Source: Escherichia phage bumzen
Reading direction: 5' to 3' (one strand)
Sequence record: MN850635.1
Length of the DNA stretch: 64,000 bases
The position numbers and the translations under genes were made by a program. Below the pieces are notes generated by a model, which saw only the letters and a program-made list of their open reading frames with translations, did not search any database and was not told where the DNA came from. Position 1 is the stretch's first letter; each line of letters begins with the position of its first letter. Positions 2,723 through 2,860 of the stretch are shown here, in pieces.

Positions 2723-2860
2723 ATCTTTGCAGTAGCTTATGTGGCTAATTATGTCGTCCCATGAGTGCCGATGAATTTCCTTAGCATGATTCTAGATTAG
2801 CTTAATATGAAATGACTCTACAGACCCTTTAGCAAGGTCTGCGTAGGTTACTGCAAAGAT
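2723..2860 (+). ncRNA. structured element closed by a perfect 12-bp long-range helix
   Basis: ATCTTTGCAGTA (2723-2734) is the exact reverse complement of TACTGCAAAGAT (2849-2860); internal hairpin CAGACC-CTTTAGCAA-GGTCTG. Confidence 0.4.

Follow-up and report, generated by a model that had tools for sequence, protein, structure and literature searches.

The locus

The DNA analyzed here is a stretch of 64,000 nucleotides from Escherichia phage bumzen (sequence record MN850635.1), referred to as the window, and the element under study is a folded domain of around 146 nt located at positions 2719-2864 of its + strand, among the tRNA genes of the phage. The window is a Felixounavirus genome, 99.6% identical to that of Escherichia phage tootiki over the stretch used as query (2400-3450). 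The domain lies inside a 432-nt gap between the genes for tRNA-Asp (2360-2436) and tRNA-Lys (2869-2944), in a run of 25 tRNA genes that are all encoded on the + strand. Two promoter-like sites (1629-1657 and 1720-1749) were detected upstream of the first tRNA, and no + strand terminator-like site was called before position 7178, hence none ahead of the domain, so that the interval is expected to be co-transcribed with the tRNAs. No specific annotation of the domain was found in public genome records, some of which lay "hypothetical protein" open reading frames (ORFs) across the region. An initial annotation of the window, made from the letters alone, had described the interval as lacking any ORF, and indeed no + strand ORF of at least 30 aa was detected in it. 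The sole ORF there is a 38-aa one with a TTG start on the minus strand (2829-2945), which extends into tRNA-Lys, and the occurrence of 1- and 2-base indels at the domain among relatives rules out a conserved reading frame. Two further features of the locus had escaped that annotation: a gene for a protein of predicted Ro60 fold directly upstream, and a long helix, paralogous to that of the domain, in front of tRNA-Leu.

A long helix closes a four-way junction

The starting point was an inverted repeat of 12 nt, in which ATCTTTGCAGTA (2723-2734) is the exact reverse complement of TACTGCAAAGAT (2849-2860), with 114 nt between them. The repeat was confirmed at these coordinates, although on its own it is not significant: in first-order Markov simulations of the window composition, 1.5 perfect 12-mer inverted repeats with a loop of up to 200 nt are expected per window, and at least one was present in 71% of the simulated windows. 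However, the helix is 23-24 bp long and not 12 bp. Twenty-six consecutive positions can form Watson-Crick or G.U pairs (2719-2744 with 2839-2864), whereas the longest such helix in 100 simulated windows had 18. In the minimum-energy fold the closing helix, called P1, has 23 bp and is made of a 5' strand at 2719-2741 and a 3' strand at 2842-2864, each containing one of the 12-mers, the last three of the 26 positions being in competition with an inner hairpin. The 3' strand ends 4 nt before tRNA-Lys. The fold of the whole domain was calculated at -50.4 kcal/mol (z = -5.8), and none of 200 shuffled sequences was as stable. A "related stretch" had also been proposed at 3216-3240; similarity does exist there, at 3218-3237, with 17 of 20 positions identical to 2729-2748, but this is about the chance level. 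The stretch has no complementary partner strand and folds into a small hairpin of its own.

P1 closes a four-way junction with three hairpins, Pa, Pb and Pc, all on the + strand. Among related phages the domain appears in three sequence types, named A (that of the window), A' (Moogle- and Susp-like phages) and B (the majority), and a further homolog was found in a more distant contig, L239. Pa (2743-2769) is a variable hairpin that the folds of types A and B both place here, with a sequence wholly different between the two. Pb (2770-2818) has the apex AUUCUAGAUU at 2789-2798, with the loop CUA at 2792-2794; this apex is invariant in close relatives and reads AUACUAGUAU in L239, where the CUAG core is retained, while the outer stem of the hairpin depends on the type (AGC/GCU vs. 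GGGU/ACCC). Pc (2821-2841) has the form CAGACC-CUUUAGCAA-GGUCUG, with a conserved loop and a covarying stem (G-C to A-U; A-U to U-A). It is the inner hairpin already recognized in the initial annotation, with CAGACC at 2821-2826, the loop CTTTAGCAA at 2827-2835 and GGTCTG at 2836-2841.

The domain was compared with known kinds of structured RNA. As an intrinsic terminator it fails, the helix being followed by UAAUGGAAG, the last five bases of which are the start of tRNA-Lys. Neither ARAGORN nor the Rfam tRNA model (RF00005) detected a cloverleaf in the domain. At E values up to 10, no Rfam family matched the interval 2437-2868, except for a partial tRNA T-arm match in E4, an upstream element described below, and the same threshold gave no Rfam match of the domain to the self-cleaving hammerhead, twister, pistol and hatchet ribozymes. 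A hammerhead-like core (CGAUGA...GAAA...GUC) can be read in type A, but was rejected for its non-canonical register, its absence from type B and the lack of an Rfam match. A split tRNA with an intron, or a group I intron, was likewise discarded: the tRNA-like halves found upstream correspond to a closed permuted domain in E4, and no intron model matches.

Conservation and covariation of the domain

Around 250 phage records keep the region, belonging to Felixounavirus, Mooglevirus and Suspvirus with Escherichia, Salmonella, Shigella and Citrobacter as hosts; around 59 of them are window-like (A and A') and around 190 are of type B. The interiors of types A and B can hardly be aligned, yet the same four-way junction is predicted for both, with a P1 of 23 bp in A and 24 bp in B. 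In L239, whose Ro60-like protein is 64% identical to that of the window, the domain was detected at 8278-8427, again before tRNA-Lys, with 72 bits and an E value of 2e-15. The model of the domain found no credible match in 75 more distant loci with Ro60-like genes, nor in the contigs L240 and L241. As judged from these searches, the domain appears confined to Felixounavirus, Mooglevirus, Suspvirus and the lineage of L239.

The initial annotation had pointed to homologous phages as the place where covariation of the helix, or its loss, should be seen, and in them the pairing is kept through compensatory changes across four sequence lineages. In a MAFFT alignment of 20 distinct sequences, 97.2% of the cells of P1, the Pb apex and Pc are paired, and five pairs are changed on both sides, a number that is reached by 266 of 500 shuffles. 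A single inserted base pair is also compensated, the insertion in the 5' strand being matched on the 3' strand (A with U). When L239 was included (21 distinct sequences), 12 pairs were changed on both sides, nine of them in P1, two in Pc and one in Pb; here the sequences had been fitted to the model, and a few lineage splits, not many independent events, account for the changes. None of 500 shuffles reached this number or the covariation score, and sliding the structure by 1-3 columns gave 0-1 such pairs. The fraction of paired cells was 96.7-97.2% overall, and 98% in the 24 alignment columns of P1.

The mismatches of P1 are asymmetric between strands, with 65 G.U cells vs. 2 A.C cells, which supports an RNA helix on the same strand as the tRNAs over a DNA repeat. 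Three parts remain constant across the types: the lower half of P1 (CUUUG.AG / CU.CAAAG), the apex of Pb and the loop of Pc, which is either CUUUAGCAA or CUUAAGCAA. Pa varies freely. The domain is thus very probably a selected RNA structure on the tRNA strand. The original suggestion of a structured non-coding RNA or a processing substrate finds support in the compensatory changes, in the G.U/A.C asymmetry and in the location within the tRNA transcription unit.

A paralogous helix in front of tRNA-Leu

A second long hairpin, HP2, is located at 4284-4372 (+) and consists of 27 consecutive pairs, four of them G.U, and a loop of 37 nt; it ends 1 nt before tRNA-Leu. P1 and HP2 are the only helices of more than 13 pairs in the 64-kb window, both of them in the tRNA region, where P1 stops 4 nt and HP2 1 nt short of a tRNA. 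The covariance model built from the domain picks up HP2 with 30.8 bits (E value 3e-4) and no further copy in the window. The two helices have in common their base and their 3' flank (UCUUU..AG / CU..AAAGAU..UUAAUG, followed by the tRNA). In L239 both are kept before the same tRNAs, and the 5' arm of its HP2, UCUUUGUAGAU, is that of the type-B P1; the comparison of its HP2 with that of the window, read from the printed alignment, showed three compensated pairs. P1 and HP2 are therefore a small paralogous set of long duplexes, each located directly 5' of the first tRNA after a long spacer.

The 5' arm of HP2 overlaps a small hairpin, AAGACC-UUUUUA-GGUCUU. A segment of its loop, UUGCUUAGG at 4334-4345 (+), is complementary to the type-B Pc loop CUUAAGCAA over nine pairs, one of them G.U. 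With the type-A Pc loop of the window just 5+3 pairs can be formed, which is near chance, and the complementarity amounts to a possible loop-loop contact only. The AUCUUU/AAAGAU theme recurs ahead of the first tRNA of sub-clusters.

The Ro60-like gene and the upstream elements

The gene upstream of the tRNAs (195-1610, +) encodes a protein of 471 aa with the Pfam domains DUF2828 and DUF7788 and a predicted TROVE-like ring and vWA domain. It ends around 165 nt before the first tRNA, and the domain lies 1.1 kb downstream on the same strand. No sequence match to the protein was found in the PDB. An AlphaFold2 model, built with 35 homologs, had a mean predicted local distance difference test score (pLDDT) of 86, and the top 10 matches of this model in a Foldseek search of the PDB were all Ro60/TROVE proteins aligned over the full length (E values of 3e-9 to 4e-7, TM scores of 0.5-0.66). 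Among them were Ro60 from Xenopus and human, Rsr from Deinococcus and Ro60 from the Thermus phage phiLo (9kop, 9l5y), and after them came isolated vWA domains only. According to this model, the 471-aa protein has the Ro60 fold, while in public records it is labeled as "hypothetical", "vWFA protein" or "RNA-binding protein". The protein gp130 of the Felixounavirus Bas63, with which we equate it by genus and gene position only, is structurally similar to Ro60 and counters the ppl defense (PMC11482910). Its authors speculated that "some tRNA genes" were Y RNAs, and identified none (PMC11482910).

Between the gene and the domain there are four tandem copies of an element with the pattern CAGAAGACC-N5-CAGCAA...GGUCUGG, three of which fill tRNA-tRNA spacers exactly. 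These elements, all on the + strand, were named E1 (1942-2019, outer helix UGAC/GUCA), E2 (2108-2173, UUGC/GCAA), E3 (2495-2576, GAGC/GCUC) and E4 (2584-2720, UUAC/GUAA), the last of which adjoins the domain in such a way that its final two bases are the first two of P1. Their common layout consists of an outer helix of 4 bp, variable but always paired, a constant AGA/G internal loop, a constant helix AGACC/GGUCU, and a small hairpin with a loop beginning with CAGCAA, plus a variable insert. All four carry (G/A)CAGAAG in a 3x1 internal loop, and CAGAAG is one mismatch away from the Ro-binding motif of YrlA RNA, GNCGAAN0-1G.

The insert of E4 is a circularly permuted tRNA-like domain (2642-2694), composed of a T arm (2642-2658; GAAGG-UUCGAUU-CCUUC), a loop-closed acceptor-like stem of 7 bp (2659-2676) and a D arm (2678-2694; GGUG-UAAUGGUAG-CACU). 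The acceptor-like stem covaries fully in three lineages (ACUCGGC/GUCGAGU in the window, ACCCUUC/GAAGGGU in Michonne and ACACGU/GCGUGU in mistaenkt). In Michonne and Mordin the loop that closes it contains GCCA, resembling the 3' end of a tRNA.

The initial annotation had noticed that the inner hairpin reuses the GACC/AGCAA/GGTC vocabulary of these elements. In agreement with this, five copies of the complete pattern AGACC-N3-6-AGCAA-(up to 140 nt)-GGTCT were counted in 1949-2840, vs. 0.03 expected per window. The same pattern was found on the + strand at 10325-10426 and 11166-11284, within protein-coding ORFs and without flanking helices; these two matches are probably due to chance, the null model underestimating the background. 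Pc resembles an E element devoid of its insert, with AGACC-CUUU-AGCAA-GGUCU in place of AGACC-GUUUA-CAGCAA-[insert]-GGUCU. A scan of viral contigs for CAGAAGACC-N5-CAGCAA was not informative: outside Felixounavirus contigs, which have 2-4 copies, single matches appeared in unrelated contigs in the number expected by chance for 15 specified bases.

The CAGCAA signature beside distant homologous genes

The 471-aa protein has more than 2,500 homologs, from which a distant sample of 75 viral contigs (L164-L238) with relatives 38-47% identical was taken. The coding strand of these 75 loci has 69 copies of CAGCAA in the first 400 nt downstream of the gene, vs. 0-1 on the opposite strand. The background in the same loci is typically around 5 per 200-nt bin, with a maximum of 17 inside the gene, which makes an enrichment of around 7-fold after it. 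The units in which the motif appears consist of the 5' strand of a helix, (N)UA, CAGCAA, an insert and the 3' strand of the helix, and there are frequently two in tandem, the first of around 60 nt and the second of 170-330 nt. Their helices vary yet pair, as in GGUUCC/GGAACC, GGAUCG/CGAUCC, AGAUUCC/GGAAUCU, GGAUGGCU/AGCCAUCC and AAGACCC/GGGUCUU. In L192, a terminal stem of 13+7 bp and CAGCAA precede a T arm, an acceptor stem closed by a loop that contains ACCA, and a D arm, and the inserts of L233 and L028 contain anticodon-like and T arms.

A perfect closing helix of 7 bp was found in 47% of cases beside the gene vs. 21% elsewhere (p = 5e-6). Other lengths were tried and discarded, since 6 bp was too permissive, with a control rate of 44%, and 8 bp was not significant and had no power. 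As the test is sensitive to this length, the positional and strand enrichment of CAGCAA is the stronger evidence. These distant RNAs have no Rfam match, and neither Rfam 15 nor the searchable literature appears to contain a description of the helix + CAGCAA family. Compared with the helix + UUA-CAGCAA units, Pc has CUUU-AGCAA (CUUA-AGCAA in type B and L239) and no insert, and its AGCAA lies at the 3' side of a 9-nt loop.

Comparison with known RNAs

As in the case of YrlA and other Y RNAs of bacteria and phages (PMC4201824), the domain is a non-coding RNA beside a Ro60 gene, with a terminal stem formed by its 5' and 3' ends (the 23-24 bp of P1, its ends being predicted) and a second module. 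The likeness is closer for E4, in which a stem is followed by a T arm, a closed acceptor stem and a D arm in the same order as in YrlA (PMC4201824), and the acceptor stem covaries. By contrast, the domain lacks the tRNA-like arms that E4 has, as well as the GNCGAAN0-1G / CGAA motif. No Rfam model matches the domain or E4, and the neighboring protein is a DUF2828-type relative of Ro60 and not an annotated TROVE protein, so that what is held in common is the signature of a helix and (C)AGCAA. Going by its sequence, the domain is not a Y RNA or YrlA in terms of motif, bulge, tRNA-like module and model match. Nevertheless, by analogy in layout and genomic context, the locus may work like a Ro60/Y RNA system, with E4 in the role of YrlA.

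The Thermus phage phiLo offers another case of a phage Ro60-fold protein with structured phage RNAs, Yrl1 and Yrl2, beside its gene (PMC12135203). There, the RNAs are encoded ahead of the gene and combine a stem-bulge-stem form with CGAA (PMC12135203), whereas those of the window are downstream and interleaved with tRNAs, and the stem of the domain is uninterrupted.

The tRNA cluster of phage T4 encodes a stable RNA, species 1 RNA (rnaC), which is cleaved by the host RNase III, is released by the tRNA-processing machinery and has no known function. It resembles the domain in being a structured non-tRNA RNA within a phage tRNA operon, with a long duplex cleavable by RNase III, but no sequence relationship between the two was detectable, and to our knowledge T4 has no Ro60-like gene at that locus. 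Processing stems for RNase III also flank the 16S and 23S rRNAs and are present at intercistronic sites of phage T7, in the form of duplexes of at least 20 bp. The sizes of P1 (23-24 bp) and HP2 (27 bp) fit those of the duplexes found around excised units, and their cleavage is predicted, although P1 encloses a conserved branched interior and not a product RNA of known function. Altogether, the domain is a structured RNA, other than a tRNA, that lies within a phage tRNA operon and next to a Ro60-like gene; it belongs neither to the tRNAs or terminators nor to the known ribozymes or the miniature inverted-repeat transposable elements (MITEs).

Proposed function of the domain

The domain is an independently folding non-coding RNA, and the last of five tandem RNA modules (E1-E4 and then the domain) after the Ro60-fold gene. 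Our preferred interpretation, to which we assign a probability of roughly 45%, is that P1 serves as a boundary or processing helix cut by a double-strand-specific nuclease, and that recognition takes place on the surfaces of the Pb apex and the Pc loop, with Pc as a minimal site for the Ro60-like protein. P1 would act as a boundary at the RNA level by locking the spacer sequence away from tRNA-Lys. Its cleavage by a double-strand-specific endonuclease such as the host RNase III is probable, as the duplex runs for more than 20 bp with no interruption, a prediction drawn from helix length only; RNase III substrates have around 20 bp or more of uninterrupted double-stranded RNA, and P1 has 23 bp in the window and 24 bp in type B. 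Once cut there, the transcript would be divided into the Y-RNA-like modules on the upstream side and the tRNA block on the downstream side, with a short leader left for RNase P. The scaffold would present the conserved Pb apex and the AGCAA loop of Pc for recognition, and the most likely reader of Pc would be the Ro60-like protein.

Several observations weigh against this interpretation. A helix abutting position +1 of a tRNA could hinder RNase P instead of helping it. Salmonella phage SP116 (L157), a viable isolate, has lost the domain, which is therefore dispensable in the laboratory. Neither the C of CAGCAA nor the AGA/G internal loop that E1-E4 have is present in Pc, and in L239 its stem is no longer AGACC/GGUCU, so that Pc shares only the loop with the E family. 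In L240 and L241, whose proteins are 53-54% identical to that of the window, the interval from the gene to the first tRNA contains no copy of the domain and no CAGCAA, and from these loci the link of CAGCAA to Ro60-like genes does not seem to be universal. Finally, Bas63 gp130 counters ppl even when expressed alone, from a plasmid or from T7 (PMC11482910), and thus this phenotype needs none of these RNAs. Together with the loss in SP116, this tempers every functional interpretation of the domain.

Among the alternatives, the one that survives best is that the whole domain is a stable Y-RNA-like partner of the Ro60-like protein, in which P1 is the terminal stem or scaffold and the branched interior recruits a second factor (e.g., a host exoribonuclease). 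Its position 1.1 kb downstream of the Ro60-fold gene and on the same strand agrees with this, as do the long terminal stem with a branched interior and the similarity of the Pc helix with UUA/UUU-AGCAA to the helix-UUA-CAGCAA signature that is enriched beside distant homologous genes. In L192, moreover, the 13+7-bp terminal stem directly encloses CAGCAA and a tRNA-like module, and the Ro60 of phage phiLo binds two phage-encoded Y-like RNAs and the host PNPase (PMC12135203). However, the domain has no CGAA / GNCGAAN0-1G motif, no bulge in P1 and no Rfam match, and the simple loop of HP2 indicates that the part common to both is a helix beside a tRNA and not a Ro-binding module. Furthermore, gp130 acts on ppl without phage RNAs (PMC11482910). 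We consider this alternative unlikely.

That the domain is a decaying remnant (e.g., of a duplicated E element or of a former tRNA), the structure of which is kept only since a misfolded spacer would harm the adjacent tRNAs, would account for Pc looking like an internally deleted E element, for the dispensability of the domain in SP116 and for the free variation of Pa. This is improbable in view of the nine compensated pairs and the compensated insertion of P1, of the invariance of the Pb apex and the Pc loop despite the strong divergence of the remaining interior, and of the retention of the domain in around 250 genomes of three genera and in L239.

Two more explanations are very improbable. 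One is a DNA-level element, either the terminal repeats of a small mobile insertion with the interior types as alternative cargo, or a protein-binding or cruciform site. Two sharply distinct interiors within conserved ends could be read in this way, in a tRNA region that in these phages is a hotspot for the insertion of HNH endonucleases, and there are an 8-nt direct repeat, AAGATGAT, at 2696 and 2856 and a CTAG-centered palindrome in the Pb apex. However, the ratio of G.U to A.C cells in P1 (65 vs. 2) is unexpected for DNA repeats, the inner hairpins covary too, HP2 is the sole other match of the model in the window, and no empty site was found, since the relatives without the domain lost it through larger deletions. 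The direct repeat was rejected as a target-site duplication because it is missing in Michonne and Mordin, and the domain does not show the several copies, the target-site duplication or the symmetric decay of repeats of a MITE or another element with terminal inverted repeats. The other is a cis-regulatory switch, in which GUAGG (2843-2847) would pair either with CUUAU in P1 or with UCUAC (2817-2821), extending Pc into an E-like bulged hairpin, and the choice between the two could control processing or protein binding. Each of the three types can form either pairing, and position 2847 covaries with its two partners, being G opposite C and U in A and A', and C opposite G and G in B. P1 also has two invariant G.U pairs, as expected if those G must also pair with C. 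However, the alternative fold loses 5-9 kcal/mol of stability in every type, and the support comes from a single evolutionary event.

As a broader and tentative proposal, the domain and E1-E4 might form part of an undescribed class of phage Y-like RNAs, defined by a closing helix, UUA-CAGCAA and often tRNA-like arms, which would be the partners of the widespread Ro60-like proteins of the DUF2828 type. If this were true, a Felix-O1-type phage would interleave five Ro60-ligand modules with its tRNAs, and the modules, once released by tRNA processing, would load the Ro60-like protein during infection.

The locus provides candidate RNAs supported by covariation for a phage Ro60 system, namely a YrlA-like permuted tRNA mimic, three shorter relatives and a four-way-junction domain, and makes its RNA side directly testable; the helix + CAGCAA signature recurs in very different phages. 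The domain may help to identify the RNA partners of a Ro60-like anti-defense protein. The "tRNA clusters" of phages harbor conserved non-tRNA RNAs that are skipped by annotation pipelines or covered with spurious small ORFs, and, given the position of the long duplexes P1 and HP2 directly before tRNAs, the processing of phage tRNA operons may follow a defined logic.

Other features of the tRNA cluster

The best sigma-70-like promoter match of the region (TTGACA-17-TATACT, 11/12) is located at 3119-3147 (+), just 3' of tRNA-Ile, and its sequence suggests a putative second transcription start within the tRNA cluster. At 3351-3433 (+) there is an aberrant tRNA-Arg(UCU)-like gene with a good acceptor stem, an anticodon arm (loop CUUCUAA) and a T arm. 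It has a 23-nt extra region and no D arm, scores 33 bits with the Rfam tRNA model and was not called by ARAGORN, and relatives have a normal tRNA-Arg(UCU) at its position. The loop CUUCUAA is also present in the tRNA-like inserts of L028 and L233.

Additional helices were detected on the + strand. A conserved GC-rich hairpin, GGGC-UAUUUA-GCCC, is located at 2446-2460, and two long hairpins with the arms CUUUAAAG / CUUUAAAG are found at 2464-2497 and 3311-3346, before E3 and before the tRNA-Arg-like gene, respectively. A 13-bp helix (4016-4028 / 4117-4129) brackets tRNA-Ser, and an 11-bp helix, UUAAAAUCUUU/AAAGAUUUAAA (5554-5564 / 5686-5696), ends exactly at the 5' end of tRNA-Gln.

In SP116, the deletion lies within positions 1364-1600 of its contig and fuses the T arm of E4 to that of tRNA-Lys, leaving a chimeric T arm. 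Recombination between the two T loops took out the domain completely, together with the 3' half of E4 and the 5' part of tRNA-Lys; this is evidence for T-loop repeats driving rearrangements in this cluster.

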